This document shows, in pieces, positions 520-52,554 of a stretch of DNA of 64,000 nucleotides (position 1 is the first letter of the stretch; the number at the start of each line of letters is the position of its first letter). This stretch comes from Candidatus Babelota bacterium (GTDB lineage: Bacteria; Babelota; Babeliae; Babelales; Vermiphilaceae): the NCBI GenBank assembly GCA_049325595.1, contig JBMOLF010000012.1:1-64000 (forward strand), in the 5' to 3' direction. Under the pieces are notes generated by a model. It was not told where the DNA came from. It made no database searches and saw nothing but the letters and a program-made list of their open reading frames with translations. The translations under genes were made by a program, and so were the position numbers.

Positions 520-1539
520 ATGAAATTAATTGATCCATTGTTTAAAAATTTAAGCCTGGAGTTTAAAAAGAAACTTAAAAAATCGGCTCCTGCATTTATA
601 AAACCAATGTTGGCAACGTTGACCAAAGATTATTTTTCAAGCAAAGAATGGATTTATGAACATAAGTTTGATGGCGTGCGTTGCATAGTAATAAAAAAGG
701 GTGATAAGGTTTCTCTTTTTAGTCGTAATCACAATTCTCTTAATGAAGAGTATCCAGAAATAGTGGCTGCTTTTGAAAAACAAAAAGCGACTGATTTTGT
801 AGTTGATGGTGAAATTGTAGCCGTGAATAAAAAAGGAATATCAGATTTTCAAATGCTGCAGGGCCGTATGAACTTAAAAGATCCACACCGTATTGCGCGA
901 GATTTAAAATTGTTACCGGTGTACATTCATATATTTGATGTGCTATATGCCCATGGCTATGATGTTATGCATCTGCCACTTCTTGTGCGAAAAAAAATTT
1001 TAAAAAAATTATTAGCATATACCAAAATTGTTAAATATACCGATCATAAGACAGGTGATGGCATAACATATTATAAATATGCATGTAAAAAGGGATGGGA
1101 AGGGCTTATTGCCAAAAAAGCCGATAGTACCTATGTGCAAAAACGTTCTCGAGAGTGGCTTAAATTTAAATGTGGCCAAGGACAAGAATTAGTAATTGGT
1201 GGATATACCGAGCCACGTGGTTCGCGTACCGATTTTGGCGCACTTTTAGTTGGGTATTATGATGGTGATCAATTTAAATATGCTGGTAAGGTAGGAACCG
1301 GCTATTCGCAAGAAACGTTGCAAGAACTTGGCAGAAAAATGCGCGCACTCGAAATAAAAAAATGCCCTTTTGTCGATTATGACGGCATTTCAAAAAACGT
1401 GCATTGGATAAAACCAAAATTGGTTGCTGAATTTCAATTTGCACAATGGACAGCTGGTGGCAAATTGCGCGTAGGGCGCTACAAAGGGCTGCGTGAAGAT
1501 AAAAAAGCTAAAGATGTGGTTAAAGAAATTCCAAAATAA
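520..1539 (+). CDS. ligD: ATP-dependent DNA ligase (LigD-type ligase domain, stand-alone)
   Basis: PMLATL, EHKFDGVR (KxDG), DGEIV, FDVL, EGLIAK, WLKFK, GKVGTG, LREDK motifs; GAGGAGG RBS before ATG 520. Confidence 0.9.
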   Translation: MKLIDPLFKNLSLEFKKKLKKSAPAFIKPMLATLTKDYFSSKEWIYEHKFDGVRCIVIKKGDKVSLFSRNHNSLNEEYPEIVAAFEKQKATDFVVDGEIVAVNKKGISDFQMLQGRMNLKDPHRIARDLKLLPVYIHIFDVLYAHGYDVMHLPLLVRKKILKKLLAYTKIVKYTDHKTGDGITYYKYACKKGWEGLIAKKADSTYVQKRSREWLKFKCGQGQELVIGGYTEPRGSRTDFGALLVGYYDGDQFKYAGKVGTGYSQETLQELGRKMRALEIKKCPFVDYDGISKNVHWIKPKLVAEFQFAQWTAGGKLRVGRYKGLREDKKAKDVVKEIPK

Positions 1540-1571
1540 TGCAGAGAAGAAATTTTTAAAATAAAAAAATC

Positions 1572-1600
1572 TTGTTGTCTACCTTTTATCGTGGTATAAC
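1572..1600 (+). promoter_or_regulatory. putative sigma70 promoter of toxin gene
   Basis: TTGTTG-17nt-TATAAC with extended -10 TG, about 40 nt upstream of ATG 1640. Confidence 0.35.
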
Positions 1601-1639
1601 ACTCTTCATTGCAAAAAAACGTTAAAAGGTAATACATCA

Positions 1640-4600
1640 ATGATTTTCAACAAAAAACGTTCTGTTTTGTTGAGCAGTTTGCTCATTCTTTTTTTTATTC
1701 AATCAACTCAGATATTTTCAATGGCCCAGGTTTTAACCCAAACATGGGTTACCTATTTGGCGCCTGCTCTTGGACATTTGGCTATGGCATTAGGTGTTGC
1801 TTTTTCAAAAAATCGCACTGATTCTGCGGCCTTAGATTCATTAAATCAATATGTTCATCAAATTGCACAGCAGCAACAGGCAACACAACAACCAGAACAA
1901 ATAACTAATCCTGCATCAATTAGTCAAGGTGCTGCTCGATCAATTGAAGTGGTTCAAGCAGTGTCGCAGCCTATTGCCACTAATTTGCCAGCAGTAGAAG
2001 GAATTGAATCGGGTGGAATGCCCGGCATTGCACCTGGTGCTATCTCGTGCCCGGGAGAAAAAATCAAGATTATAACTCCTGATCAAATGATGACCCTTAC
2101 AAAAATATTAACTGATGCAGTAAAACCACGCATTAAAGTTGTGCCACAAGAGCAAGGTTTTTTAGCAATACTTGGACAGCAAGCACATTTTGCTAATAAA
2201 TATAAGCCACAAAGCTTGTGGACTACCAATAACTCAATCCCCGGTGTTACGCGCTATCAACATGAATCGGGTCTTTTTGCACAAGTAGAAGCAAAAATAC
2301 CTCAATATAATCTTGGCCATGCATTGTATTGCCAGCAAGCACAATCTGCGTACCGACATTTTGCCTTAGTAAGAACATCACCGGAATATGTTCATTATAT
2401 ACGTCAACGTCTCGATCAGGTGCTGCAAACAACTATCAAATTTTCAAGTGCATCAATAACTGATCGAGTACGTGCCTTTTTTGAACTAAATGCATCGCAT
2501 GATTCATGGTGGGTGCAAGGAAAAATCGATCCTTTGGTGCGAGATATAAACAATTTTGCAACGTTGGGTGATTATGAATTAACTTCAGTAAATTTTCAGC
2601 ACAATTTGCATGGCATTGTCACCAATTATTTAAAAGATATTGGCAATAAAAGCGATGTAAGCGGCTTGGTTAAAACTCTTGGACTCTCTGATCAAGGGAG
2701 TGAAAGTTGGACGTCGTCTATTTATAGATTTGCACGCAATGCTACCCATTGGTATCCAAACCAAGAAAAGGTTTTTGCACATCCCACCAATCAAAAATTA
2801 TTAAGGTTAATTGATGCCTGTGATCGTTATGATATGACACAAGTGCAAAATATTATGACCGAGTTGGCAGACAATCACCTAGGGCAACAAATCTACAAAG
2901 AATTTTGCGATCAGTATCATAACATGCTTTATACCAAAGAAGGAATTTATCGATTATATGAAAATGACCCTGTTTGGCAAAAGTTATCGCTCGATCAAAA
3001 GAATGAAATTGCACTAGATGCGATCAAGCGACAAGAACTCAATCATGAGTTAGCATTACGTCATATCGTAAAAGAAAATATATGCAAAGCATGGAGCATT
3101 CCTCAATCTGCATTACCATCAGTACATCAAACGGTGTACAAAATAGTTGATCAGCCAGAGTTGTTAACATCACCGGCAAAATTAAGTGAATTTCTTGCTA
3201 AAGAAGCAACAACTATTCCAGCTCATGAATATGAAACCTGGATGAAATCGTTCTTCTGTAAAAATGGGCTGATTGCTGATTTTGTAAATTGGCCAGAAGC
3301 TACGCAATACGGTATGCCACTTACCATTCATAAGCAAGAAAATGTTTTGCTGCGCCATTCGTTTAATAATGCATTGTCTTTAATACACGCTAACCATGCG
3401 CAAGCGCCAGTAGCAAAACAAATTATCTGTTACATTGAGCGTGCGCTTACTACGCAAGATGTTCAACTTGCTCAATCGTATAAAACTATTGTTAACTCGC
3501 TTGAACATTCAATTGCAAACAGATACCCCTTAGCTAAAATAATTCCTGATTTTAGTACACAATACTCGCGCCCTATAGCGATTCGCTTACAAAATTTGCT
3601 CGTTAAAATGACAAGTAAGTTGCTTGAATCACATAAAGCTGCAGTAGTCGCTCGTGCTGCGTATAGTACCATTCACCAATTTAGTGATGCGCTGCGCGCA
3701 TTAAAAGATTTAGTGCACGGCCAACAAGAGGTAACAGGCGATAAAATTGAAGAGCTCATTAAATCTGGTCCGTATCAAGATCAGGTTAAAGCTGAATTGC
3801 TTGATGAACTTAATCAAGCATTGCACGCACAAGCTATTGCACAAGAATGCGGTGCCCACCTACCGGCATTAGAAGATTTGCCAAAACCAATTACCTTGCC
3901 ATGGGATGATCCAGATCGAAAACCTTTAAAAGGAGGGCAGATTATTGCTCCTCGCCCACCAGAAATGGGTGGCAAGGTAATTGGTGGGTTACCGGAGGAA
4001 AAATTTCTTAAAGGTGATGATTGTAGCCCTATAAAATTGCCTGATCCAGAGCCATGCAACTGGAGTAAAGGGTATGGGCGATTACCATCATTTAAAGATC
4101 CAAAGCATGTAGATACTAATAATCCACAAATGCCACCGCCCAATGAAGAAATCGGTAAAGGTGCCGAGATTGGAATTGATAGTATTCTTGGCGGTGGCAT
4201 TGGTGAATTAGATGGCCAAGCACAATCTGAAGATGGTACTAAAGCGAAAGATGATGCAGTTACTCTTCCGCAAACAGAAATTGAAACAAAGCCTGTAGCA
4301 AAGCCGGTTTCAGAAACTCAAGCACCAGCGAAGGCAGAAACACAATCACCGGCTGATGCTAAATCAAAGGTAATTGACCCAGCAACCGAGCAAGAAAAAG
4401 CTGAATGGAAAGCGAGAAAAGAACTTACGGTGAAGTTGCTAAAAAAAGCTCTTGATGTGTTGCGTAACAAATATGGGAAAGATAGCGAAGCATTCCTAAA
4501 GATGCAAGAAGGAGTAAGAAAAGTAATACAGGAGCTTAATAAACCTGAATGTAAATATCACATAGATACGACAACAAAAGGCGTTCATAATATAGTTCCT

Positions 4601-5143
4601 AAAGAGCTAGAAAGATTTATTCCTTCTGCAAAAGAATTAGCCGAGTTAGAAAGACTTTTAGATATTCTTGATGAAATTAAAAAAGTTAGTGGCAAGGAGG
4701 TGGATAAATTGATTGAAAATTTGATACACGTATTTGCACCTGAAGTAAAAGTTAATTGCGAAGAAGGAAAAGTGGGTACGCAAGGAGCTCATTATTATCC
4801 TATTCTTGAGCTCTTGGAAAAAGAGGGATTGATAAAAATAGATACTAAAGTTTTAAATCCTGATGGAACCTATATTATTGAATGGTCTTATCACGGTTCA
4901 AAAAGCAAGGAATCGACATGTTTCCCCCTAGAATGGACAGAAGAAAAAATTATTCAAAAGATTAATGAGGCTGCTAAAAATATTACTAAAGAAGAGTGGC
5001 AAAAAGATGGACGTTTAGAAATAATTGGACAAACAACAGAGGGAATCAAAATAAAAATGGTTTTTGAATTTCAGAAGGTGGAGGAAAAAACTATATGCAA
5101 AATGATTAGCTGTTATCCCTACAAAGAAAAAAAAGGAATTTAA
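1640..5143 (+). CDS. secreted polymorphic toxin with C-terminal bacterial EndoU-type nuclease domain
   Basis: N-terminal signal peptide; Pro/acidic linker; C-terminus HVF...GAH...SKESTCFPLEW...GQTTEGIKI...ISCYP matches the EndoU_bacteria pattern; immediately followed by a small gene. Confidence 0.85.
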   Translation: MIFNKKRSVLLSSLLILFFIQSTQIFSMAQVLTQTWVTYLAPALGHLAMALGVAFSKNRTDSAALDSLNQYVHQIAQQQQATQQPEQITNPASISQGAARSIEVVQAVSQPIATNLPAVEGIESGGMPGIAPGAISCPGEKIKIITPDQMMTLTKILTDAVKPRIKVVPQEQGFLAILGQQAHFANKYKPQSLWTTNNSIPGVTRYQHESGLFAQVEAKIPQYNLGHALYCQQAQSAYRHFALVRTSPEYVHYIRQRLDQVLQTTIKFSSASITDRVRAFFELNASHDSWWVQGKIDPLVRDINNFATLGDYELTSVNFQHNLHGIVTNYLKDIGNKSDVSGLVKTLGLSDQGSESWTSSIYRFARNATHWYPNQEKVFAHPTNQKLLRLIDACDRYDMTQVQNIMTELADNHLGQQIYKEFCDQYHNMLYTKEGIYRLYENDPVWQKLSLDQKNEIALDAIKRQELNHELALRHIVKENICKAWSIPQSALPSVHQTVYKIVDQPELLTSPAKLSEFLAKEATTIPAHEYETWMKSFFCKNGLIADFVNWPEATQYGMPLTIHKQENVLLRHSFNNALSLIHANHAQAPVAKQIICYIERALTTQDVQLAQSYKTIVNSLEHSIANRYPLAKIIPDFSTQYSRPIAIRLQNLLVKMTSKLLESHKAAVVARAAYSTIHQFSDALRALKDLVHGQQEVTGDKIEELIKSGPYQDQVKAELLDELNQALHAQAIAQECGAHLPALEDLPKPITLPWDDPDRKPLKGGQIIAPRPPEMGGKVIGGLPEEKFLKGDDCSPIKLPDPEPCNWSKGYGRLPSFKDPKHVDTNNPQMPPPNEEIGKGAEIGIDSILGGGIGELDGQAQSEDGTKAKDDAVTLPQTEIETKPVAKPVSETQAPAKAETQSPADAKSKVIDPATEQEKAEWKARKELTVKLLKKALDVLRNKYGKDSEAFLKMQEGVRKVIQELNKPECKYHIDTTTKGVHNIVPKELERFIPSAKELAELERLLDILDEIKKVSGKEVDKLIENLIHVFAPEVKVNCEEGKVGTQGAHYYPILELLEKEGLIKIDTKVLNPDGTYIIEWSYHGSKSKESTCFPLEWTEEKIIQKINEAAKNITKEEWQKDGRLEIIGQTTEGIKIKMVFEFQKVEEKTICKMISCYPYKEKKGI

Positions 5144-5581
5144 ATGAAGTTTACAATACTTAAAAAAGATGGGGAAGCTTATTACTCTACTGATGTAGTT
5201 TCCAATGATGATTATTCATATATTTTAATGAGAATTTTTACCGATCGAATATCCTTTGCAAAAAATATTAAGAAGGACCTTGAAAACCCTAATGCGACAG
5301 GAAGAGCTGGAAATGAGATGGATATTGATATAAATAATTCTTATGTAACTATAAGTTATTTATATGCTGAAGATGAATACATAGTCATTAATCGTCAAGA
5401 ATTAATAAAGATACTAGAAAAAGGCATTGCTTTAATGGAAGCTAATGCACCCTATATTTCATTGATACGAGAGAATGAGAATGCTCCAATTAAAGTCACT
5501 GATCAACTGCCAGAAGGAATGGAGTTTTTTGTTGAAAATAAACAATTAAAAGCTAGATATAAAGGAAAAATTTATACCTAA
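5144..5581 (+). CDS. putative cognate immunity protein (Imm1)
   Basis: ATG abuts toxin stop (TAAATG); 145 aa, acidic, no signal peptide; paralog of six downstream genes. Confidence 0.8.
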   Translation: MKFTILKKDGEAYYSTDVVSNDDYSYILMRIFTDRISFAKNIKKDLENPNATGRAGNEMDIDINNSYVTISYLYAEDEYIVINRQELIKILEKGIALMEANAPYISLIRENENAPIKVTDQLPEGMEFFVENKQLKARYKGKIYT

Positions 5582-5718
5582 CAATAATTAAAAAATAGTA
5601 ACCCATGACGATGGAGCGTATCTCATTAACTGGTCATATAAAGGTTCTGAACCCAAAAATTCTACTTTTTTTCCAGCCGATTGGACGCCTGAGTAGGTAG
5701 TTGAGGCTATAAAAGAAG
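5567..5718 (+). repeat. 152-bp direct repeat copy 1 (copy 2 at 7298-7449)
   Basis: Manual alignment with offset 1731; mismatches seen only at 5640/7371 and 5694/7425. Confidence 0.9.
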
Positions 5719-5891
5719 CTCTAAAAAATGTCGATGAAGTAATTGTAAATGATTTAGATTATGACATTGTTGGCATAGCAAAAAATGGTATGAAAATATT
5801 TTTTAACGCACGAATTATTTTTGATTCATTTGGTGGAAAATCATATCTAAAAATTACAACTGCTTATCCCCATAAAAAAAGAGAAAATTAA
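5592..5891 (+). pseudogene. orphan EndoU toxin C-terminal fragment 1
   Basis: Translates KIVTHDDGAYLINWSYKGSEPKNSTFFPADWTPE*VVEAIKEALKN...GIAKNGMKIFF...KITTAYPHKKREN*; no start codon, internal TAG at 5694, stop overlaps next ATG (TAATG). Confidence 0.9.
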
Positions 5892-6328
5892 TGGAATTCG
5901 CGATTATAGAACGAATTGGAAAACAGTCGTATTTTTCAGGACCAAATAATTCTTATTACCTTATGTTTTTATCAAAAGTATTTACTGATGACTTAGTAAA
6001 TCGAGTAATTGAACGACTATCGAAAGCAGATTTTCGAGGCTTTGCCGGAAATATAACAACCGTACGGCCAGGAACTAATAATGACAAGGTAGAAATTGGT
6101 GATGTGTATTGGTACGAATATGATACAGAACCAATCGAGATAGATAAACAAGAATTATTAAGAGTAGCAAAAGAAGGTTTATCATTAATGGAAAAAGATG
6201 TTGCTTACATTGTTTTAACTCGTAAAGATGAGAAAGCTCCAATTACTATTACTGATCAGCTGCCCCAGGGAATGGAACTTTATACCGAACATAAGCAACT
6301 GAAGTATAGATTTAAAAATGAAAAATAG
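5891..6328 (+). CDS. orphan immunity protein paralog (Imm2)
   Basis: Shares FTD, GN, IDKQELL, YIVLTR, TDQLP motifs with the other array members. Confidence 0.8.
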   Translation: MEFAIIERIGKQSYFSGPNNSYYLMFLSKVFTDDLVNRVIERLSKADFRGFAGNITTVRPGTNNDKVEIGDVYWYEYDTEPIEIDKQELLRVAKEGLSLMEKDVAYIVLTRKDEKAPITITDQLPQGMELYTEHKQLKYRFKNEK

Positions 6329-6423
6329 AGTTTAGTCAATATATGCATAACATAGTTAGAATAATTAATTAACTTTGTGTTCTATGACAATAAACACATA
6401 CAAATCTTTATTAGGCTAATGGG

Positions 6424-6858
6424 ATGGAATTCAAAATATTAGAATTAACTGAATCGGGGACATATTTTTCAGGTCCAAATAATTCTTATTATCTTATGTT
6501 TTTATCAAAAATTTTTACTGATGGCCAAAGCTTTACAAATTGGATAATCGAGGAATTAACAAAAAAAAGCTTTAAGGGACTCTCAGGCAATATGATCACG
6601 GTCAATCCTGTAAATGATAATAAAATACAAATTGGTGATGTGTTTTGGTACGAGTATGATACAGAACCAATCGAGATAGATAAACAAGAATTACTAAGAA
6701 TCGCTAGAGAAGGCTCATTGTTAATGGATAAAGATGTTGCTTACATTGTCTTAACTCGTGAAGATGAGAAATCTCCAATTGCGATTACTGACCAATTACC
6801 TGAAACTATAGAACTTTACACTGAACACAAGCAGTTAAAATATAGAGTTAGAAAATAA
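6424..6858 (+). CDS. orphan immunity protein paralog (Imm3)
   Basis: Same family motifs; most like 8056-8499. Confidence 0.8.
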   Translation: MEFKILELTESGTYFSGPNNSYYLMFLSKIFTDGQSFTNWIIEELTKKSFKGLSGNMITVNPVNDNKIQIGDVFWYEYDTEPIEIDKQELLRIAREGSLLMDKDVAYIVLTREDEKSPIAITDQLPETIELYTEHKQLKYRVRK

Positions 6859-6862
6859 CAAT

Positions 6863-7312
6863 ATGGAATTTGCAATCATAAGAAGACTTGAAGGCGGGGG
6901 TTATTTCCTGGGGCCTGATAGCTCTGATTATTTGATATATCTAGGTCATATTTTCACAGATGGTCAAAGCTTTACAAAAAAAATTATACAGGAATTATCA
7001 AAAACAAATTTTAGAGGCTTTGCCGGGAATATAACAACGGTACGGCCTGGAACTAATACTGATATGGTTCAAATAGGCGATGTGTATTGGTATGAGTATG
7101 ATACCGAACCAATCGAGATAGATAAACAAGAATTATTAAGAGTAGCAAAAGAAGGTTTATCATTAATGGAAAAAGATGTTGCTTACATTGTCTTAACTCG
7201 TGAAGATGAGAAATCTCCAATTGCTATTACTGATCAATTACCCGATGGAATGGAACTTTTTGAGCAGGGCTATGAAACAAAAGCTAGGTATAAGGGGAAA
7301 ATTTATACCTAA
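6863..7312 (+). CDS. orphan immunity protein paralog (Imm4)
   Basis: Same family; near-identical to 8504-8953; ends KARYKGKIYT. Confidence 0.8.
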   Translation: MEFAIIRRLEGGGYFLGPDSSDYLIYLGHIFTDGQSFTKKIIQELSKTNFRGFAGNITTVRPGTNTDMVQIGDVYWYEYDTEPIEIDKQELLRVAKEGLSLMEKDVAYIVLTREDEKSPIAITDQLPDGMELFEQGYETKARYKGKIYT

Positions 7313-7449
7313 CAATAATTAAAAAATAGTAACCCATGACGATGGAGCGTATCTCATTAACTGGTCATATGAAGGTTCTGAACCCAAAAATTCTACTTTT
7401 TTTCCAGCCGATTGGACGCCTGAGCAGGTAGTTGAGGCTATAAAAGAAG
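7298..7449 (+). repeat. 152-bp direct repeat copy 2
   Basis: Matches 5567-5718. Confidence 0.9.
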
Positions 7450-7618
7450 GACTTCAAAATATAAAGAGTATAGAACTTGAAAATGGTAAATATCAAATTA
7501 AAGGAGAAACCAAGGCTAGAATGAAAATTCTTTATATCGGGAAAATTGTTACAGATACAGTCGATAAATCTTCATTTTTAAAATATTAACTGCATATCCG
7601 GATAAACGAGGGTTGTAA
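7323..7618 (+). pseudogene. orphan EndoU toxin C-terminal fragment 2
   Basis: KIVTHDDGAYLINWSYEGSEPKNSTFFPADWTPEQVVEAIKEGLQN...GETKARMKIL...SSFLK, then an apparent 1-nt deletion in the A-run at 7580-7583; continues LTAYPDKRGL* in another frame. Confidence 0.9.
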
Positions 7619-7619
7619 T

Positions 7620-8054
7620 ATGGAATTTAGAATTTTGCGTTTAACAGATTCAGGAACATATTTTTCGGGACCTAGTGATTCAGATTATCTTAGAATATTA
7701 TCGCATATCTTTACAGATGGCTTAAGTTTAACAAGATGGATAATAGAGGAGGTACCTAAATCTAATTTTAAAGGGTTATCTGGTAATATCACCTCTGTTA
7801 GAGCCGTAAGTAATAATCTAATACAAGTTAATTATTTGGATTGGATTGATTGGGATACTGAAACAATAACAATTTGTCGCAATGATTTAGTCAGAATAGC
7901 AAAAGAAGGTTTATCATTAATGATAAACAATGTTCCTTACATTGTTTTGATCCGCGAAAATGAAAATTCCCCTATTGTTATTACCGATCAACTTCCCGAA
8001 GAAATAGAACTCTATACGGAAAATAAACAACTGAAATATAGACTGAAAAATTAA
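7620..8054 (+). CDS. orphan immunity protein paralog (Imm5)
   Basis: Same family; begins 2 nt after the orphan fragment 2 stop. Confidence 0.8.
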   Translation: MEFRILRLTDSGTYFSGPSDSDYLRILSHIFTDGLSLTRWIIEEVPKSNFKGLSGNITSVRAVSNNLIQVNYLDWIDWDTETITICRNDLVRIAKEGLSLMINNVPYIVLIRENENSPIVITDQLPEEIELYTENKQLKYRLKN

Positions 8055-8055
8055 T

Positions 8056-8499
8056 ATGATAATGGAATTTGCAATTTTGGAAAAATTAGATTCAGGCATG
8101 TATTTTTCTGGGCCAAATAATTCTTATTATCTTATTTTTTTATCAAAAATTTTTACTGATCGTAGAAGCTTTACAAATTGGATAATCGAAGAATTAATAA
8201 AAGAAGGCTTTAGGGGTCTTTCAGGTAATATAATATCAGTGCGATCCGCAAGTAATACTAATCGAATACAGATTGGTGATGTATTTTGGTTCGATACAGA
8301 TATTGAGCCAATTGAAATTGATAAACAAGAATTATTAAGAATAGCAAAAGAAGGCTTATCATTGATGATAAACAAAGTTCCATACATTGTCTTAACTCGT
8401 AAAGATGAGAATTCTCGTATTATTATTACTGATCAAGTACCTGAAACTATAGAACTTTACACTGAACACAAGCAGTTAAAATATAGAGTTAAAAAATAA
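8056..8499 (+). CDS. orphan immunity protein paralog (Imm6)
   Basis: Same family; start may be MEF at 8062. Confidence 0.8.
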   Translation: MIMEFAILEKLDSGMYFSGPNNSYYLIFLSKIFTDRRSFTNWIIEELIKEGFRGLSGNIISVRSASNTNRIQIGDVFWFDTDIEPIEIDKQELLRIAKEGLSLMINKVPYIVLTRKDENSRIIITDQVPETIELYTEHKQLKYRVKK

Positions 8500-8503
8500 C
8501 CAT

Positions 8504-8953
8504 ATGGAATTTGGAATCATAAGAAGACTTGAAGATGGGGGTTATTTCCTGGGACCTCATAGCTCTGATTATTTGATATATCTAGGTCATATTTTCACAG
8601 ATGGTCAAAGCTTTACAAAAAAAATTATAGAGCAATTATCAAAAACAGATTTTAGAGGATTTGCCGGGAATATAACAACGGTACGGCCTGGAACTAATAA
8701 TGACAAGGTTCAAATAGGTGATGAGTTTTGGTTTGAGTATGATACAGAACCAATCGAAATTGATAAACAAGAATTATTAAGAGTAGCAAAAGAAGGTTTA
8801 TCATTAATGGAAAAAGATGTTGCTTACATTGTCTTAACTCGTGAAGATGAGAAATCTCCAATTGCTATTACTGATCAATTACCCGATGCAATGGAACTTT
8901 TTGAGCAGGGCTATGAAACAAAAGCTAGGTATAAGGGGAAAATTTATACCTAA
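8504..8953 (+). CDS. orphan immunity protein paralog (Imm7)
   Basis: Same family; near-identical to Imm4. Confidence 0.8.
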   Translation: MEFGIIRRLEDGGYFLGPHSSDYLIYLGHIFTDGQSFTKKIIEQLSKTDFRGFAGNITTVRPGTNNDKVQIGDEFWFEYDTEPIEIDKQELLRVAKEGLSLMEKDVAYIVLTREDEKSPIAITDQLPDAMELFEQGYETKARYKGKIYT

Positions 8954-8980
8954 TGTGAATTAAAAAAATTGCTAAATATG

Positions 8981-9532
8981 TTAGATTTTTCTAGTTATTT
9001 TTTCTTCGTATTCTTTTAATTTTGTTAATATTTGCTGATTATCGTGTATGCGAGCATCAAGGTGTCTATTTAGCGTTGCGTATTTCGTAGCTGCTTTTAT
9101 TCCAGTAAGGCTCAATAAAAAACCTGCTATTGCTGCGGCTGACCCAAGTGCTATCAGAGCATATCCCTTATTGCTATCTTGATGGCAACCGATGTAATCA
9201 CGGGCAAAATGTATTGAAGCAGCAGCAGTTAGTTCAAACAGTAAGCCTGGTACTGCATAAAATATTGTTTTTTTTAATAAATTTTTTTTGTAAGTCGAAT
9301 TTTTTTCTTTTTTTTCGGTTACGTGATGAATATGGTTTTCGAGAACTTTTTTGTACAAAGGTATGTTATAAGCAGATAATCCCCATGTTTCAGGATTTTC
9401 ATCCTGTTTTAAGCGATAATAAAGATATTTTCGTTGCCCATCACCTTCTTTAGGAGGTTTATCTTGAAAAAAATCCATGCTCAAAGAATTAAGCGGTATG
9501 GTTAAGATAAGGCTAATAAACATTTTTTTCAT
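8981..9532 (-). CDS. signal peptide + two-TM hairpin protein (family A)
   Basis: Signal peptide, basic helix, two hydrophobic segments; paralog of 9556-10167. Confidence 0.75.
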   Translation of the reverse strand: MKKMFISLILTIPLNSLSMDFFQDKPPKEGDGQRKYLYYRLKQDENPETWGLSAYNIPLYKKVLENHIHHVTEKKEKNSTYKKNLLKKTIFYAVPGLLFELTAAASIHFARDYIGCHQDSNKGYALIALGSAAAIAGFLLSLTGIKAATKYATLNRHLDARIHDNQQILTKLKEYEEKITRKI

Positions 9533-9555
9533 AAGAATTTAACTCCGTATTGTCA

Positions 9556-10167
9556 TCAGCTAAATTTTTTGTAATTTTTTTCTTCATATTTTTTTAAAAG
9601 AGATAATACGTTTTCATCATTCTGAATGTGACTATCAACATGTTTGTTGAAAGTAAAATATTTTACCAGTTGCTCGCCACTACTCATAGTATACACGCAA
9701 CCAACAGGAGCGGCACAAAGACTGGCAGCTAATAATGCTGTTGTGTTAATTCCTTTTGGGGTAAATAGCATATCATATATCATATCATTCAATGTACTGC
9801 GCAAATTAATTTCAATTTTGCTAGTAGCTAAATATATAGCAGCACCTGCCACAACAAAAAACGAAATCCCAGCCAGGCCAAAATAAGCTGCTTTTTTTAG
9901 GAAATTTTTTTTATAAATGGGTGCGTTTTGTTTTTTTTCCTTTAAATGTTCAAGATGTTTTTCAAAAAGGTTTTTATAATCAGGAAAACTTTTAGCTGAA
10001 ATATAGCTACTTAAATCTTTTTCTTTAAGAGCGGCGTAATAAAGCAAATTTCTTGAACCAGTACCTTCTTTTTTTGTCTTTTCAAATACAAATGGTTCAA
10101 ACATCATAGAAAAACAGTTAACAGAGACAAGTAACGAAAATAAAACTGAAAAAAATGTTTTTTTCAT
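9556..10167 (-). CDS. signal peptide + two-TM hairpin protein (family A)
   Basis: KEGxGxRxxLYY, YKKNxLKK, YEEK shared with 8981-9532. Confidence 0.75.
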   Translation of the reverse strand: MKKTFFSVLFSLLVSVNCFSMMFEPFVFEKTKKEGTGSRNLLYYAALKEKDLSSYISAKSFPDYKNLFEKHLEHLKEKKQNAPIYKKNFLKKAAYFGLAGISFFVVAGAAIYLATSKIEINLRSTLNDMIYDMLFTPKGINTTALLAASLCAAPVGCVYTMSSGEQLVKYFTFNKHVDSHIQNDENVLSLLKKYEEKNYKKFS

Positions 10168-10296
10168 TATAACCCCATTTAAATGATCAAACTGAAGCTT
10201 TATGGCTTCTACTTATTAGCTAAAATACCATAATTTTAAATTTTTGTCTTGCGTAGGGAAATGGTATTAAATTTTTTAATTTGATGAATAAATATT

Positions 10297-10320
10297 AAAA
10301 ACGGGAGGGGAACCTCCCGT
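10297..10320 (-). terminator. intrinsic terminator
   Basis: ACGGGAGG-ggaa-CCTCCCGT perfect stem, with a U-tract on the minus strand just past stop 10326. Confidence 0.8.
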
Positions 10321-10325
10321 ATGCA

Positions 10326-10895
10326 TCAGTTATTCATCGCAGCTTTATATTCTTCAAATTGTTGTAACATATCCTGATCACGGTTCAAATTATGTTGCAT
10401 CATTCTATCATGCTTAAAGTATGAATTTACCAGTGAATAATTGCTCATAAAGCTCAATACTCCTAAAAATCCAGTTATCATTGCAGATAAAACATATCTT
10501 TCAGATACTATGCTATACCGATCTTTATTTGATTCATGGACAAAAAGAATAGTTGCAGCCCAAAGAATGGTATTGATAGCGGTTGAAGCTACAGCTTTTT
10601 TTAGTTTTAATTTCTTTATCGGATTTTGATTTTTATCTTTATGCAGTAAATAGTTATAGTGATTTTTTACCATTTCATGATAATAATTAAAATTTGATAA
10701 AACTTCATTGCTGCTGGTGATTGAGCGATTTTGAGCATAAATCCAATTGAGCCATTTTCTTGTTAATTTATTGGGCACACGTTTGCGATTGTTTAAGGGA
10801 ATTAAAATTACTGATGTTATAGTTGCCTCAAGCATTGTTGATGTTTGACAGGCAAATAACAAAAACAGTGCTAATAATTTGCTTTTATTGTTCAT
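10326..10895 (-). CDS. signal peptide + two-TM hairpin protein (family A)
   Basis: RKWLNWIYAQN, YYHEMVKNHY, RDQDMLQQFEEYK motifs. Confidence 0.75.
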   Translation of the reverse strand: MNNKSKLLALFLLFACQTSTMLEATITSVILIPLNNRKRVPNKLTRKWLNWIYAQNRSITSSNEVLSNFNYYHEMVKNHYNYLLHKDKNQNPIKKLKLKKAVASTAINTILWAATILFVHESNKDRYSIVSERYVLSAMITGFLGVLSFMSNYSLVNSYFKHDRMMQHNLNRDQDMLQQFEEYKAAMNN

Positions 10896-11494
10896 GTAGT
10901 TTCCTGTTTAACTGAGCGATTTTGTGTGGCCATTGTAGCTTTATATTCTTCAAATTGTTTTAGCATGTGCTCATCTCGTTTTATATTACGACTAAGCGCA
11001 AGATCGTGTTTTCGATAAGAATCGAAGAATAAACAATTAAGCATTAAACTAAAAAGCCCTAGCGTCATGCTTGATACGCTAAGAGCAAGATGCAATTCTT
11101 CGCTTTGGTCGGAGCAAGTCAGAGCTTTTTTTAAAAAAACGAAACCCGCAGTCCAAATGCTTGCATTTATGCCTGTTGATATTAGCAATCTTTTCAATTT
11201 AACTTTTTTAATCTGATCATTATTTTGTTTTTTATAAAGTAAGCGATCGTAGTGATTTTTTACCATTTCGTGGTAATAATCAATGTTTGAACGTATTTCA
11301 TTGATGCTCGTAATCGAAGGGTTTTGAGCATAAAGCCAATTTAAACTTTTTCTTGATAAGAGCTTGGTTGCTGAATTGTCAATAACTACTGTAGATGACA
11401 TAAACATGAATGGTAAAAATGGTAAAAGCATAGCATCTATTTTGCTAAAAAATACTGTGCAAAAAAGTGTAATGAGGAATCTATTAATTTTCAT
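10892..11494 (-). CDS. signal peptide + two-TM hairpin protein (family A)
   Basis: Same motifs; ATGA overlap with next gene. Confidence 0.75.
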   Translation of the reverse strand: MKINRFLITLFCTVFFSKIDAMLLPFLPFMFMSSTVVIDNSATKLLSRKSLNWLYAQNPSITSINEIRSNIDYYHEMVKNHYDRLLYKKQNNDQIKKVKLKRLLISTGINASIWTAGFVFLKKALTCSDQSEELHLALSVSSMTLGLFSLMLNCLFFDSYRKHDLALSRNIKRDEHMLKQFEEYKATMATQNRSVKQETT

Positions 11495-11607
11495 ACTAAT
11501 CCATGTGCTTAAGTTTGTTGAATAGCATTAAAACAGCCAGAGTGATCCCAGAAATAAATTCTCTGAGGTCACTAAGAAAAAATGCTCTATAGTTTTTGCA
11601 GAATTCA

Positions 11608-12189
11608 TTAATTTTGGTTTATTGCAGCTTTATATTGTTCAAATTGCAGCAGCATATGCTGATCGCGTTGTAAATTACGATTTAATATTCGATCATATTT
11701 TTGGTATGAATTTACCAACATGCAATTAACAATAAAACTGAAAAATCCCATAAATCCGCTCGCGCTACAAAGAAAGGCATATTTATCCTGTCCATCATAA
11801 CTCGGGGTAGATTTACCTTTATTAAAGAAATAAACGGCAGCAGCCCAAAGACTAGCATTAATACCGGTAGATATTAATGCTCTTTTTAATTTTGCTTTTT
11901 TAATTTGATCTCTATTTTGTTTTTTATAAAGCAAATAATGGTAGTGATTTTTTATCATTTCATGATAGTAATCAATGTTTGATCGGACATCACTGCTACT
12001 TGTTATTGAAGAGTTTTGAGCATAAAGCCAATTTAACCATTTCCTACTTAATGTATCTGGCACGGTATTTGGAATTATGACTGTTGAAGGTATATACATA
12101 GGCATATAAAAAGGAAAAAACATAGCAGATGCTTTACTAATAAATGCTAAACAAAAAAATGTAAGTAGTATTTTGTTTTTAGTATTCAT
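11608..12189 (-). CDS. signal peptide + two-TM hairpin protein (family A)
   Basis: Same motifs. Confidence 0.75.
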   Translation of the reverse strand: MNTKNKILLTFFCLAFISKASAMFFPFYMPMYIPSTVIIPNTVPDTLSRKWLNWLYAQNSSITSSSDVRSNIDYYHEMIKNHYHYLLYKKQNRDQIKKAKLKRALISTGINASLWAAAVYFFNKGKSTPSYDGQDKYAFLCSASGFMGFFSFIVNCMLVNSYQKYDRILNRNLQRDQHMLLQFEQYKAAINQN

Positions 12190-12779
12190 GTAGTTTCCTG
12201 TTTAACTGAGCCATTTTGTGTATCCATTGTAGCTTTATATTCTTCAAATTGCTGCAACATGTGTTTGTCTCTACGTATATGATGAGCCATTTTAGCGTCA
12301 TGATGATTATATGAATGCCAAGCTTTAACTGCAGCATATAAACTAAATAAAGTAAACCCGGTGAAACACAATGCAGGCCATAAGTTTCCTTCTAGTTTTT
12401 TAGTTTTACATAATAATTGATAACTCCAGCAAGTAAATCCTCCCTGAAAAATTACTGCTAAAGCTGTTATATAAATCGAGATTTTTTTTATTTTCAGAAT
12501 AATTTCTCGTGAATTGTTTTTGAACATTAAGCGATCGTGATGATGTTTAATAATCGCATGAAAATAATCGATGTTGGATATGACATGCGGATTATTAATA
12601 ACGAAATTATCATACCTATATGTTACATTTAGCCATTGGCGATCTCTGTTTTGTGAAATAGTTGATCTAATATTGTTGAGGTAATTACGTAAATTTTTAA
12701 AAGATGGTAAACAATCAGTTGTAATTGTATTTAAACCAATAGTTACACATGCAAGATAAAATAAATTTTTAATTTTCAT
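12186..12779 (-). CDS. signal peptide + two-TM hairpin protein (family A)
   Basis: Likely start MKIKN at 12779 (AGGA RBS); SNIDYFH, RDKHMLQQFEEYK; ATGA overlap. Confidence 0.75.
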   Translation of the reverse strand: MKIKNLFYLACVTIGLNTITTDCLPSFKNLRNYLNNIRSTISQNRDRQWLNVTYRYDNFVINNPHVISNIDYFHAIIKHHHDRLMFKNNSREIILKIKKISIYITALAVIFQGGFTCWSYQLLCKTKKLEGNLWPALCFTGFTLFSLYAAVKAWHSYNHHDAKMAHHIRRDKHMLQQFEEYKATMDTQNGSVKQETT

Positions 12780-12798
12780 AAAGTCCTGTCCAAAAAAA

Positions 12799-13986
12799 TT
12801 ATTTGTAGTAACCGACTCCAGCGCCTCCAGCTGAACCAATTGCAAAACCTGCGGCTATACCCCCGGGAACAGCTGTTGAAAAAGTAGTTGCTGTAGTTGT
12901 AGCTGCAACTGTTACTCCGCCTGCAGATGCAGCAGTTGCACTTAATTTTGCTGCAACAAAAGGAAGAGCGGGAGGGAAATAAATGGCTGTTATGCCTACT
13001 CCTACCGCAGCGCCTATTATACCTCCAATTGCAGCGCAGGTTTGTATATTTTGTCTACGCAAAGTTTTTAACTGTAAATCTAATAAGTCATCTTGTTTTC
13101 TGCGGCGTGCTGCTTCTTCGCTAACATGGGCTTCATACTTTTTGTGGTTTTTAATGGCTCTATCAAGTTCGCTTTTTACTATATTATCATCAATAGCCTG
13201 ATTAGACTGTTTGATAGCTATTTCATTTACCAGTTGTTGTAAATCTGCGGAGCAAAATCCTTTAGTTTTTTTAACAACAAGATCAAGCATTTTGTCTGAA
13301 AGGTTTATTTTATCACTAGTAAAATAATGCCGTAAAATTTCTTTGCGATCAGCATCATTAGGGTTACCAATTTCTACTTCTTCCAATCGTTTACCTCTTC
13401 GGATGCGAGAATCAAGAGACTTTAAGAAATTAGTAGTTCCAATTACGGTAACCGAATTATCTTTTGGAAGACTGTCTAATAATTTTAAAAAATGTCCAAC
13501 AGTTTTTGCTTGATAATCTGCATGAGAATCATTGCTGTTATTAGTAGATCTAAGTAGGGCATCTAATTCGTCAATAACAATAACAACAGGATGATCATAT
13601 TGTGCTAAATGTTTAGCATGTTCAAATAGACGATCCAATCGTTCAGTATTGGTTCCGGTATATGGTCCTTCGACAGAACCGGTTATTCTAAGGGTAAAGG
13701 CCTGTATTTTTTTGGCAAAATCGGTTGCTATTGTTGATTTACCATTGCCAGCAGGACCATGTAAAATAAAGCCCTTGTTGCATTTGCCTGTTTTATTATT
13801 TACACAATCGACAAATTTATTAAATTCTTCAAATATTTTACCTTTAAACTCTTGTGTGTGATTTTGATAATCTGTATAGCTTTCTTCTTCCCAACATTGG
13901 TAATAATTAGGATCGTTTAAATTACCATGGCAAATCATGGTATTAGTTATAATTAAACTTAATAAAATTACTAAGCTTTTTTTCAT
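12799..13986 (-). CDS. AAA+ ATPase with signal peptide and C-terminal Gly/Ala-rich hydrophobic tail
   Basis: GPAGNGKS, VIVIDELD, GTTN, RIRRGKR; tail IGGIIGAAVGVG...GGAGVG. Confidence 0.85.
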   Translation of the reverse strand: MKKSLVILLSLIITNTMICHGNLNDPNYYQCWEEESYTDYQNHTQEFKGKIFEEFNKFVDCVNNKTGKCNKGFILHGPAGNGKSTIATDFAKKIQAFTLRITGSVEGPYTGTNTERLDRLFEHAKHLAQYDHPVVIVIDELDALLRSTNNSNDSHADYQAKTVGHFLKLLDSLPKDNSVTVIGTTNFLKSLDSRIRRGKRLEEVEIGNPNDADRKEILRHYFTSDKINLSDKMLDLVVKKTKGFCSADLQQLVNEIAIKQSNQAIDDNIVKSELDRAIKNHKKYEAHVSEEAARRRKQDDLLDLQLKTLRRQNIQTCAAIGGIIGAAVGVGITAIYFPPALPFVAAKLSATAASAGGVTVAATTTATTFSTAVPGGIAAGFAIGSAGGAGVGYYK

Positions 13987-14029
13987 GGAATCTTCCTCTG
14001 CTTATGTGGATTGTTTAAAATGTTTTCAA

Positions 14030-14989: not shown

Positions 14990-15012
14990 AAAAAAAGTAT
15001 CCTTCCTTGTTG

Positions 15013-52549: not shown

Positions 52550-52554
52550 ACTCT

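Follow-up and report, generated by a model that had tools for sequence, protein, structure and literature searches.

A predicted polymorphic toxin locus in a Dependentiae genome, with a carrier and an immunity family that are undescribed and specific to the phylum

Judged from its sequence, the locus at positions 1640-8953 (+ strand) of the window, the 64,000-nucleotide stretch analyzed here, is a true polymorphic toxin system, whose carrier and immunity family are undescribed and specific to the phylum. It consists of a toxin gene, seven immunity paralogs, and two toxin-tip remnants. Homologues of the toxin's N-terminal body bear different C-terminal toxin domains, and the protein is therefore a polymorphic toxin by definition. 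The first-pass annotation had raised the possibility of an undescribed toxin class; this holds for the carrier and the immunity family, but the kind is already known, namely, Sec-dependent polymorphic toxins, whose constant N-domains are lineage-specific (PMC3482391, section 37).

The host genome, reduced (1.29 Mb) and 95% complete, belongs to Dependentiae (TM6), a phylum infecting protists, which bears out the intracellular, protist-associated lineage proposed earlier. It falls in the same genus as strain Noda2021, which infects and kills Vermamoeba and is located among the host mitochondria (PMC8812299). The gene upstream of the toxin encodes an ATP-dependent DNA ligase. Other neighboring genes encode AAA ATPases and a PLA2_B lysophospholipase, with signal-like N-termini and an effector-like appearance.

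Architecture of the toxin

The toxin gene (1640..5143, +) is an open frame of 1,167 aa, as first described, and has full-length relatives in P0002 and P0004, which are 63% and 54% identical to it over the searched region, aa 30 to 760. Its N-terminus (aa 1 to 27; 1640..1720) reads as signal peptide-like, with KKR, a 12-residue hydrophobic run, and "..IFS." A crude, home-made hydropathy rule, rather than a dedicated predictor, puts the KD mean of this N-terminus at 2.9. The rule is also passed by 43 of the 55 representative relatives and by 12 of the 19 genomic carriers; some of the failures (12/55 and 7/19) are due to the choice of start codon or to values close to the threshold. A second, borderline-hydrophobic segment (aa 31 to 57; 1730..1810; KD mean about 1.4, by hand) is kept in close relatives, with P42 invariant; it could form an N-terminal hairpin holding the protein on the cytoplasmic side. 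A variable A/Q/S-rich spacer follows (aa 58 to 139; 1811..2056), with 20 to 42% identity to P0002/P0004 in 50-aa bins.

The carrier body proper (aa 140 to 757; 2057..3910) is all-alpha in an AlphaFold2 model built with 60 sequences (pLDDT 85.3, pTM 0.71). Its most conserved core (aa 361 to 650; 2720..3589), where remote matches align at about aa 370 to 630, gave a domain model with a pLDDT of 93.6. This core probably holds an internal repeat of a helix-hairpin-helix module, the block at 375 to 470 aligning with that at 475 to 585 by hhalign (probability 83.7%, E 8e-6). The shared body ends at the junction motif LPKPITLPWDD (3878..3910), directly after which P0003 and P0005 diverge, the former into Ntox21 and the latter into a tip of unrecognised type. 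Next comes a linker rich in P, G, K, and E by composition (3911..4366), whose conserved Cys motif CNWSK..LP (4055-4093) is also present in distant EndoU carriers.

The cargo (4367..5140), delimited by Pfam and by comparison with P0026, combines a helical pre-toxin part with an EndoU RNase domain (H1030, H1051, K1090, S1092, T1093). EndoU_bacteria (PF14436) matches aa 1045 to 1160 significantly (E 3e-14; 53.9 bits, cut-off 25.3), in agreement with the EndoU-like ending proposed at first pass. The two histidines singled out there, H1030 (nt 4727) and H1051 of the "QGAH" motif (nt 4790), do not vary among the aligned EndoU carriers (12/12), and neither do G1049, F1095, W1099, and P1160. The K-x-ST motif also stood, K1090 (the Lys of "SK-x-ST," read off the alignment) being kept in 10 of the 12 and S1092, T1093, and P1096 being at least 90% conserved. 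According to the review PMC9086364, the EndoU catalytic center is a His-His-Lys triad, and the tip is predicted to cut RNA through such a center.

A phylum-wide carrier with exchangeable tips

The carrier body occurs in 66 of 261 Dependentiae genomes, which represent 43 of the 145 genera; one complete genome has as many as 10 places that match it. The tips found on the shared body include EndoU, Ntox21, bacterial RNase A, and Ntox37, and most match nothing in Pfam. Thus, among the 62 remote relatives scanned against Pfam, EndoU was found in seven above the cut-off and one just below it, RNAse_A_bac, Ntox37, and Ntox21 once each, and no Pfam family in 51. The full-length relatives P0002 and P0004 have EndoU tips, and the tip of P0003 is Ntox21 (90.5 bits). 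A search for body homologues with differing C-termini, suggested at first pass, thus found them.

No Pfam family was matched in the N-terminal body of the toxin or of the relatives scanned (62/62 remote, 21/21 genomic). Foldseek against the PDB returned no convincing solved structure (best E 0.24), and colicin domains were absent from the fold matches of the body in structure searches. The earlier description of a body (~1,000 aa) with no recognisable carrier signature is upheld; by these comparisons, the N-terminal part, of about 760 aa, is a carrier matching no described family.

EndoU tips also travel on other bodies. P0026 has a different body but matches toxin aa 893 to 1009 at 52%. The tips of P0026 and the resident toxin have the same residue at 103/167 positions, compared to 61/167 for the P0002 tip. 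The P0026 body is related (BLASTP E 3e-13) to a second EndoU toxin, on contig C23, which is homologous to the resident toxin over aa 951 to 1160 only.

Immunity genes and the predicted complex

The small acidic gene said to abut the toxin and its six further paralogs were all found intact (7/7; 144 to 149 aa, pI 4.7 to 5.9). Imm1 (5144..5581, +) starts at the base after the toxin stop codon and is predicted to be the cognate immunity gene. Of the seven paralogs it diverges most, with 38 to 45% identity to the other six. Imm2 (5891..6328, +) is paired with remnant 1, an Imm2-like sequence lying behind a P0002-type tip in a sister strain (below), and Imm5 (7620..8054, +) is the presumed partner of remnant 2 from its position (P0011 is 69% identical). 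Imm3 (6424..6858, +), Imm4 (6863..7312, +), Imm6 (8056..8499, +), and Imm7 (8504..8953, +) are orphan immunity paralogs by intact frame, paralogy, and pI, Imm4 being 92% identical to Imm7. The immunity genes are evidently under purifying selection, judging from pairwise dN/dS values of 0.13 to 0.40, of which only those for Imm4/Imm7 and Imm3/Imm6 are firm because dS is saturated in most pairs. None of the seven proteins has a signal-like N-terminus in the hydropathy test, and they are predicted to be cytoplasmic.

The pairing recurs elsewhere. In Noda2021, an immunity homologue adjoins the orthologous toxin (locus tags 09590 and 09580). An immunity HMM matched downstream ORFs in both further loci with an above-cut-off EndoU carrier (2/2) and in none of the other 18 carrier loci (0/18). 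Behind the C23 toxin, a 156-aa ORF is a distant member of the family (hhalign 96%, E 4.8e-9) and keeps the G..GN motif. Against PDB chains, the family had no sequence likeness (best E 0.004, to an unrelated phosphatase).

Structure prediction suggests that Imm1 plugs the EndoU active site. Three runs with tip residues 950 to 1167 and Imm1 gave ipSAE values of 0.79, 0.82, and 0.79, with at least 83% of contacts shared and partner pLDDT of at least 85; the best of three controls was 0.00. This score is the model's own confidence. Among solved complexes, 116 of 157 scored at or above the mark used, compared to 2 of 215 among mismatched pairs, counts that are only rough because our own alignments were used. 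The predicted interface joins toxin residues 1046 to 1049, 1051, and 1088 to 1093 to Imm1 residues 51 to 58.

Displaced cassettes and a sister strain

CDI, Rhs, and MafB loci are laid out as toxin, immunity gene, and then orphan tip/immunity cassettes. Here, the two tip remnants reported between the paralogs were confirmed by tblastn with the main tip as the query, and E values of 1.6e-14 and 3.5e-12 mean that they are not chance matches. Both are 3' halves that begin downstream of the two catalytic histidines. Remnant 1 (5592..5891, +) has an in-frame TAG at 5694-5696 and is closer to the P0002 tip (65/96 identical positions) than to the resident tip (36/99). Remnant 2 (7323..7618, +), with a stop at 7587-7589 and then a frame-shifted tail, shares 45/86 identical positions with the P0004 tip. 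A patch of ~125 nt spanning the spacer and remnant start (5576..5700, +) is 97 to 100% identical to 7307-7430 in windowed alignment, whereas the units around it are otherwise 60 to 70% identical. For four of the six orphan immunity genes, there is no accompanying remnant of a tip.

Run X2 represents a near-identical sister strain, in which a 95,058-nt contig has flanks 96 to 99% identical to the window. In this contig, window position 4557 is followed directly by 7362, and 7449 by 5756, so that the body is fused to a P0002-type tip, of which the window retains no more than remnant 1; behind this tip comes an Imm2-like gene, in sequence that is 92% identical to 5756-6114. X2 gave no coverage of 5121-5440 and a trace depth of 0.66 over 5441-5760 (together Imm1 plus spacer), and no coverage of 7681-8640 (Imm5 and Imm6). 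Since the X2 body carries the remnant 1 tip type with an Imm2-like gene, cassettes displace one another. The first joint lies within the cargo, near a conserved "NKPECKYH," and the other in the "WSY.GS..K.STFFP" core. Between these two strains, the body protein itself is only 54 to 86% identical, compared to 96 to 99% DNA identity in the flanks; "constant delivery module" is therefore an oversimplification.

Relation to known systems

As described in section 37 of PMC3482391 and in PMC4287609, the MafB/MafI toxins of Neisseria and the Microscilla-N and APD1/2 toxins likewise have a signal peptide, a lineage-restricted N-domain, and a variable C-terminal toxin; T5, T6, and T7 secretion markers are absent, and the immunity gene is directly downstream. 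MafB loci also have orphan cassettes, and Amoebophilus asiaticus, the source of APD1/APD2, is an amoeba symbiont as well. The carrier described here differs in being all-alpha and much larger (about 620 aa), in spanning 43 genera of one phylum rather than one genus or species, and in lacking any match in the Pfam scan, including to any model built for those families. Upstream lies the DNA ligase gene and no MafA-like lipoprotein gene, and no lipobox follows the signal-like segment, unlike in APD1/2.

The tip resembles CdiA-CT of Escherichia coli STEC_O31, for which a solved EndoU-immunity complex (5HKQ) is listed in PMC9086364: an exchangeable EndoU-fold RNase with a His-His-Lys(-Thr) center and a small immunity protein encoded downstream. 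Unlike CdiA, the carrier has no TPS domain, FHA repeats, or VENN motif, and the Imm family has no sequence likeness to solved chains. Displaced 3' toxin fragments with their own immunity genes behind the resident pair are the pattern of CDI, Rhs, and MafB arrays (PMC3482391), as is recombination within a conserved segment that precedes the variable part. The joint here (nt ~4557) is inside the cargo, not at a VENN or PxxxxDPxGL boundary, and most orphan immunity genes (4/6) lack a remnant, unlike in those arrays.

Nuclease colicins E5, D, and E3, which PMC9086364 mentions, are also soluble multidomain toxins with a long helical part before a C-terminal RNase of the BECR fold group, and the gene for an acidic immunity protein follows immediately. 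Colicins, however, lack a signal peptide and depend on a lysis protein for their release; here, the N-terminus is signal-like and no lysis gene was seen at the locus.

Proposed function and alternatives

We think it probable, on balance, that this is an exported EndoU toxin aimed at kin Dependentiae, with Imm protection and cassette turnover; the RNase activity, binding, export, entry, and target are what we infer. The toxin would comprise a Sec-type signal-like N-terminus, the ~620-aa all-alpha carrier, the "KP..LPW.D" junction, a proline-rich linker, and an exchangeable C-terminal cargo of ~200 to 270 aa. EndoU would cut RNA, probably tRNA or other cytoplasmic RNA, and cytoplasmic, acidic Imm1 would cover the active site with its invariant G-x-x-G-N loop and thereby neutralize the tip. 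New tip and immunity cassettes may arrive by recombination within the conserved part of the cargo, pushing the old tip downstream, where it would decay to its 3' half. We imagine that old immunity genes are retained because they protect against sister strains still firing those tips, and that the likeliest targets are other Dependentiae cells in the same protist host or biofilm.

Export would most likely be by Sec, followed by outer membrane passage through machinery encoded elsewhere; candidates in the genome are two secretins, one OEP (TolC-like), and two T2SSE-type ATPases. VipB and VirB4 had no match in this 95% complete genome. The earlier claim that no transporter is adjacent stands insofar as no dedicated one is linked to the toxin gene, over a contig that starts at window position 1 and so reaches just 1.6 kb upstream; a mechanism of target-cell entry is not evident.

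That no contact-dependent injection machinery was found would equally suit an effector directed at the host, with EndoU degrading amoeba or mitochondrial RNA, the immunity protein serving only to shield the producer until export, and an arms race with the host driving the turnover of tips. The obligately intracellular lifestyle, the behavior of Noda2021 in Vermamoeba (PMC8812299), the signal-like, effector-like neighbors, and the reading of Amoebophilus APD1/APD2 as host-directed (PMC3482391) all fit. Yet six extra intact Imm paralogs under purifying selection would be pointless if the cell's own tip alone mattered, and displaced tips, with the same type in use in a sister strain, are the hallmark of kin conflict. 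PMC3482391 observes that when intracellular bacteria aim toxins at their host, these usually come without immunity genes. We therefore hold a host target to be possible but rather unlikely.

It is still less probable that the toxin stays in the cell, its two N-terminal segments forming a membrane hairpin that tethers a cytoplasmic RNase acting in a toxin-antitoxin or abortive infection-like manner. The conserved second hydrophobic segment (aa 31 to 57), the lack of a linked transporter, and the predicted cytoplasmic immunity proteins are compatible with this, but the first segment, ~12 residues after KKR, looks more like a cleaved signal peptide than like a membrane span, and the second is just borderline hydrophobic; swapped tips, orphan tips, and Imm arrays are known for exported polymorphic toxins, not for toxin-antitoxin systems (PMC3482391). 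The two broken orphan tips might hint at a locus in decay that no longer functions, but this is very improbable given an intact 1,167-aa frame with all catalytic residues and seven intact Imm frames with dN/dS values no higher than 0.40 in a reduced 1.29-Mb genome.

To return to the kin-directed reading, a toxin with its antidotes and discarded tips, on an undescribed carrier, suggests that intracellular parasites may fight each other.

The toxin and its EndoU tip

The frame at 1640-5143 (+) translates into a protein of 1167 aa, and the view of the first-pass annotation that this protein ends in an EndoU-like domain was borne out. In the Pfam scan, EndoU_bacteria (PF14436) matched toxin aa 1045-1160 at 53.9 bits (curated cut-off, 25.3), with an E value of 3e-14. 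The rest of the toxin gave nothing credible in the whole Pfam library at E values up to 1, EndoU and two chance-level rows being the entire output, and NCBIfam returned chance-level rows only. The residues that had been named for the tip are real and conserved across an alignment of 12 EndoU-bearing relatives: H1030 (nt 4727), G1049, H1051 (nt 4790), F1095, W1099, and P1160 are invariant in 12/12, and S1092, T1093, and P1096 are at least 90% conserved. K1090, the lysine of 'SK-x-ST', is kept in 10 of the 12, as read by eye from the printed alignment. Judging from the sequence, the predicted catalytic His-His-Lys and the following Ser/Thr are present in the tip.

The exchangeable unit is bigger than the Pfam EndoU domain. 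The database protein P0026 matches the window toxin at aa 893-1009 with 52% identity (phmmer), and its tip shares 103/167 residues with the tip of the window's intact toxin (the resident tip), compared to 61/167 for P0002 and 63/162 for P0004, two other EndoU-bearing relatives. The body of P0026 is related to a second EndoU toxin of the window's genome, on contig C23 (BLASTP E value, 3e-13). P0026 therefore carries a resident-like tip on a C23-related body, so that one tip type rides on two distant bodies.

Between body and tip, a linker motif, 'C-N-(W/Y/H)-S-K ... L-P' (window 4055-4093; aa 806-818), is conserved in distant EndoU carriers (alignment A4). It is preceded by 'CG' motifs, and the surrounding linker is of low complexity. 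The linker Cys motif may be a processing or disulfide site.

The carrier body family

Four relatives, 47-63% identical, came out of a word-indexed search with aa 30-760. All four are collinear with the window toxin as far as the motif 'KP..LPW(D/N)D' (aa 747-757) and diverge immediately past it; the C termini of P0002 and P0004 are EndoU, that of P0003 is Ntox21 (90.5 bits), and P0005 ends in a tip without a Pfam family. Exhaustive phmmer with aa 1-1010 gave 67 proteins at E values of ≤0.001, 24 of them at ≤1e-10 and 6 at ≤1e-30 (query included), most aligning over aa ~370-630. Among the 62 of 63 further relatives taken into the Pfam scan (P0022-P0083; P0084 was left out), EndoU scored above the cut-off in seven and just below it in one, and RNAse_A_bac, Ntox37, and Ntox21 were found in one each; the tips of 51 have no Pfam family, and the body region had no Pfam match in any of the 62. 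Homologs of the N-terminal body with other C termini, which the first-pass annotation had proposed looking for, thus turned up with EndoU, Ntox21, RNAse_A_bac, Ntox37, and Pfam-less tips. On sequence grounds, this is one N-terminal family with different C-terminal toxin domains, a polymorphic toxin in the sense of PMC3482391.

The body profile matched 66 of 261 Dependentiae genomes (46 of the 189 of good quality and 43 of 145 genera), with matches confined to nine families of one order. None was found in twelve other Dependentiae families, including the two largest (0/35 and 0/12). Complete genomes have up to 10 body-matching places each. One apparent relative, in the Oscillospiraceae metagenome-assembled genome at L003, matched over 32 residues only and was taken as spurious.

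Of the loci found with the body profile, 20 were analyzed, and 18 of these had open reading frames (ORFs) matching the body HMM. In 10 of the 18, the carrier is followed by a same-strand ORF of 101-165 aa. The 21 carrier ORFs of these loci had EndoU above the cut-off in 2, EndoU below the cut-off in 3, and Pfam-less tips in 16. One locus, L022, repeats the layout of the window, with toxin, immunity gene, a 124-aa orphan EndoU tip, and immunity gene in order. At another, L030, the small ORF behind a distant carrier (6257-6559, -) encodes a DUF6980 protein (53.6 bits), which is a candidate immunity family for a Pfam-less tip.

The body appears to be an all-alpha domain. An AlphaFold2 model of aa 140-770, built with 60 sequences, is almost all helical (pLDDT 85.3, pTM 0.71), and the core, aa 361-650, modeled alone reached a pLDDT of 93.6 and a pTM of 0.85. 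Foldseek against the PDB found nothing at an E value of ≤0.001 with either the whole-body model (best, 0.24; TM ≤0.18) or the core-only model (best, 1.3). Searches independent of Foldseek returned, for both models, generic helical-bundle or three-helix rows, mostly designed proteins, that covered small parts: VIA-align wide with the whole-body model listed generic helical bundles only (Z ≤10.1, model residues 448-609), and for the core the best row, a designed binder, had a Z of 8.0 across 59 residues. An ESM Atlas search with the body gave no usable match. The modeled carrier is therefore without a fold match in these PDB searches, and absence of a match is not proof of a new fold. Within the body, a helix-hairpin-helix module seems to recur; hhalign paired block 375-470 with block 475-585 at 83.7% (E value, 8e-6), compared to only 24.7% for block 245-345 with block 475-585.

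Immunity genes and their predicted complex with the tip

Downstream of the toxin are seven intact paralogous frames of 144-149 aa, with pI values of 4.7-5.9 (Imm1 to Imm7, within 5144-8953), the first starting at the base right after the toxin stop codon. This agrees with what had been read from the sequence, a small acidic gene abutting the toxin followed by six further paralogs. None of the seven has a relative in Pfam, NCBIfam, or the PDB; in a profile search of the PDB with the immunity alignment, a phosphatase (E value, 0.004) and IQGAP3 (0.13) were both taken as chance. DUF5376 (PF17346) scored 0.88 against the family in a language-model feature search. Its own model matched 1 of 17 immunity members (E value, 0.043), none at the cut-off, and none of nine more distant candidate immunity ORFs, so we list DUF5376 as a weak lead only. 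No paper mentioning DUF5376 was found.

The family has 16 database members. One, Noda2021_09580, adjoins the orthologous toxin of 'Candidatus Dependentiae bacterium Noda2021', and several are 61-79% identical to Imm1 specifically. Two of these Imm1-like proteins, P0014 and P0019, are possibly linked with P0026, hinting at the same tip/immunity pair on another body. The immunity HMM matched downstream ORFs in both of the further loci with a carrier EndoU above the cut-off (2/2) and in none of the remaining 18 carrier loci. Behind the C23 toxin, an ORF of 156 aa belongs to the family as a distant member (hhalign 96%; E value, 4.8e-9) and retains the G..GN motif. With the HMM matching only behind EndoU carriers and a distant member behind the C23 toxin, immunity therefore follows the tip and not the body. 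What is found directly downstream of the toxin is thus a putative immunity gene that tracks the tip and is predicted to bind it.

A complex of the tip (aa 950-1167) with Imm1 was predicted with ipSAE values of 0.79, 0.82, and 0.79, the best of three controls reaching 0.00. The mark used for ipSAE is reached by 116 of 157 solved complexes and by 2 of 215 mismatched pairs, counts that are only rough where one's own alignments are used. At least 83% of contacts are shared between runs, and the partner pLDDT is at least 85. In the predicted interface, toxin residues 1046-1049, 1051, and 1088-1093, which include catalytic H1051 and K1090, meet Imm1 residues 51-58, among them the invariant G53, G56, and N57. 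The model supports a putative occlusion of the EndoU active site by Imm1.

Pairwise dN/dS among the seven intact paralogs is 0.13-0.40. The least saturated pairs are Imm4/Imm7, with 0.38 (dS 0.09), and Imm3/Imm6, with 0.26.

Orphan tips and cassette displacement

The two toxin-tip remnants that the first-pass annotation had placed among the paralogs were both recovered by tblastn with the resident tip, at E values of 1.6e-14 and 3.5e-12. Remnant 1 (5592-5891) and remnant 2 (7323-7618) each start downstream of both catalytic His; the former has an in-frame TAG at 5694-5696, and the latter has a stop at 7587-7589 and then continues in another frame. Two 3'-half tips and six extra immunity genes, that is, displaced or orphan tip and immunity cassettes of the kind that mark polymorphic toxin loci, therefore lie downstream of the toxin.

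The immunity/remnant array (cassette DISPLACEMENT) is a mosaic duplication, with 6424-7326 and 8062-8967 88% identical and 5396-6322 and 7127-8054 70% identical. A patch of ~125 nt (5576-5700 versus 7307-7430) that takes in the spacer and the first part of each remnant is 97-100% identical, whereas array units are otherwise 60-70% identical. The patch suggests, at the level of sequence, either that gene conversion took place recently or that recombination prefers a site in the coding stretch for 'WSY.GS..K.STFFP..WT'. Remnant 1 is nearer to the P0002 tip (65/96) than to the resident tip (36/99), and remnant 2 is about equally near to P0004 (45/86) and P0002 (44/84).

The strongest evidence for cassette displacement comes from contigs of X2, a public metagenome run that samples a sister strain. 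Its 95,058-nt contig is 96% identical to the window over the flank at 125-1812, and a second contig is 98.8% identical over the flank at 8858-9600. In the 95,058-nt contig, window position 4557 is connected with 7362 and 7449 with 5756, and the match then continues at 92% identity through 5756-6114; the sister strain therefore has the body fused to a remnant-1-type tip, followed by an Imm2-like gene. X2 coverage is nil on 5121-5440, of trace depth (0.66) on 5441-5760, and nil on 7681-8640, and no X2 contig covers Imm1, Imm5, or Imm6. The older tip has been displaced, in the strain of the window, by a new one together with Imm1. Contigs from X2 and from another public run, X1, match only ~4505/4515-5073 and differ from the window on both sides. 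The loose sequence upstream of the match is of P0026 type in one frame, and the resident tip type is therefore also present on another carrier in the same samples.

Divergence is not limited to the tip. The body is 54-86% identical in protein to that of the X2 strain, though the flanks are 96-99% identical; aa 1-50 are 92% identical, and window 1813-4140 is <85% identical in DNA. The whole toxin gene is thus a divergence hot spot. As a speculation, such divergence of the body between sister strains fits a receptor-binding part under diversifying pressure.

Genomic setting and proposed export

The genome (1.29 Mb, 24 contigs, 95% complete) has the window as the first 64 kb of its contig JBMOLF010000012.1, so that just 1.6 kb of the contig precedes the toxin gene. 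Among full-length relatives with a name, Noda2021_09590 is the closest; it comes from Noda2021, a genome (G246) ranked in the same genus. The Noda2021 locus is syntenic: an ATP-dependent DNA ligase and the toxin are followed by one immunity gene and then by convergent genes for small paralogous membrane proteins and for AAA ATPases. Orphan tips are absent there, as are extra immunity genes. Upstream in this complete genome, nothing was seen but small ORFs, housekeeping genes, a gene of aquaporin type, and, at a distance of 5-7 kb, ABC-2 transporter genes. Noda2021 was isolated on Vermamoeba vermiformis, kills its host, and lies among host mitochondria (PMC8812299); the genome announcement does not discuss the toxin gene.

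In the window, the ATP-dependent DNA ligase (493-1539, +) is directly upstream of the toxin, and a Ku protein (54057-54860, -) is encoded 50 kb away; together they make up a pair for end-joining repair in a genome of just 1.29 Mb. Among 20 other carrier loci, only one has a ligase homolog. The Ku gene is flanked by five paralogous small proteins (52064-55327, -; 152-168 aa, 26-41% identical) with signal-like N termini, a shared 'GFEIRNHD' motif, and no Pfam family.

AAA ATPases (PF00004) with signal-like N termini adjoin both EndoU loci and the Noda2021 locus (window 8981-16050, -; C23 locus L001, 3856-6785; Noda2021 locus L002, 14048-21016). The same clusters hold small paralogous membrane proteins of 175-219 aa that share the C-terminal tail 'R.(I/L).RD..ML..(F/L)(E/Q)'. 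An AAA match was found in 13 of 20 other carrier loci (BLASTP, 1e-4). As a defined transporter link, the AAA ATPases were rejected: in five complete genomes, adjacency to the toxin was seen only in G246 and for one of seven AAA copies of G232, being absent in G228, G121, and G122. Scanning 1300-9200 for promoters and terminators gave no more candidates than expected by chance (39 versus 33.5±6.3 and 5 versus 4.8±1.9).

The second EndoU toxin, on C23, has 975 aa (53.7 bits) and is homologous to the window toxin by BLASTP only over aa 951-1160. By profile, its N-terminal part joins the body family (hhalign 92.4%; E value, 5.3e-7; genome search E value, 9.2e-12). Its locus (L001 6851-13308, -) runs from a PLA2_B lysophospholipase (633 aa, signal-like N terminus) through the toxin to the 156-aa immunity-like ORF and a 346-aa ORF resembling the latter's tandem double.

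The window toxin starts with a stretch that resembles a Sec signal: KKR, a run of 12 hydrophobic residues, and '..IFS'. Under a crude signal rule of our own, 43 of the 55 representative proteins and 12 of the 19 genomic carriers scored positive, and none of the 7 immunity proteins did. A second conserved segment, aa 31-57, is borderline hydrophobic. Elsewhere in the genome are genes for two secretins, a TolC-like protein, and two T2SSE-type ATPases; VipB and VirB4 had no match in this 95%-complete genome. The genome-wide search for ShlB (two-partner secretion) is uninformative because the control itself had no match in any genome.

Discussion

Which of the known systems, if any, does this locus belong to? 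The first-pass annotation had recognized no RHS, FHA, LXG, PAAR, or MafB signature in the body, and the Pfam scan likewise gave no such match. MafB proteins carry a MAFB-N (DUF1020-like) domain after the signal peptide, where the window toxin has no match within the Pfam library, and have a MafA lipoprotein gene directly upstream, where both the window and Noda2021 have an ATP-dependent DNA ligase. In CDI (CdiA/CdiB, type V), a TPS domain, FHA repeats, and an adjacent CdiB are expected; the window toxin has no such Pfam match or neighbor. Rhs/PAAR/T6SS toxins have RHS repeats or PAAR, again without a Pfam match here and with VipB absent from the genome, and LXG/T7SS toxins have an N-terminal LXG or WXG, likewise unmatched, whereas the N terminus here is signal-like. 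APD1/APD2 effectors combine a signal peptide, a lipobox, and an APD domain; in the window toxin, no Cys-containing lipobox follows the hydrophobic run.

Sec/T2SS-dependent polymorphic toxins whose constant N-domains are lineage specific are already on record: section 37 of PMC3482391 covers MAFB-N with MafA, Microscilla-N, and APD1/APD2 of Amoebophilus and predicts that more exist. In CDI, EndoU tips paired with immunity proteins have been described (PMC9086364). The suggestion of an undescribed toxin class accordingly stands for the carrier and immunity families, which appear to be new, and falls for the kind of system, already described in PMC3482391. In an excerpt of the Chromulinavorax paper, endoU is mentioned only as a cytoplasmic endonuclease. 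Literature searches found no paper combining 'Dependentiae' with 'polymorphic toxin', nothing linking Dependentiae to immunity proteins, and nothing closer. Also new is a full system of toxin, immunity, and orphans across a quarter of the sampled Dependentiae genomes.

The family supplies a large, confidently modeled carrier domain without a known fold match, together with a new EndoU immunity family. Since 51/62 and 16/21 of the scanned tips are Pfam-less, new toxin domains can also be drawn from the carrier family. The predictions made here are testable, since Noda2021, which grows in Vermamoeba, has an orthologous toxin with a single immunity gene.

The retention of orphan immunity genes, together with the replacement of tips from strain to strain, points to conflict among kin; an effect on the host is a less likely alternative. 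Going beyond such conflict, we can imagine, as a rather doubtful possibility, that the all-alpha body works by itself as a delivery module specific to the phylum and, after Sec export, binds and carries the RNase cargo into neighboring Dependentiae in a shared protist host. If so, there would be bacteriocin-like warfare among obligate intracellular parasites without type V, VI, or VII machinery, and the fast divergence of the body between sister strains would be an arms race over the receptor.

Dependentiae are a widespread, barely cultivated phylum of protist parasites, and their interactions with one another are, to our knowledge, almost wholly undescribed. Taken together, the swappable tips, retained antidote arrays, and cassette replacement of a toxin family present in about a quarter of the sampled genomes speak for direct competition of these reduced intracellular bacteria with their kin. 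According to a portion of PMC3482391, intracellular bacteria mostly have no immunity genes, Odyssella being an exception, and competition of this kind among Dependentiae would therefore be unusual.
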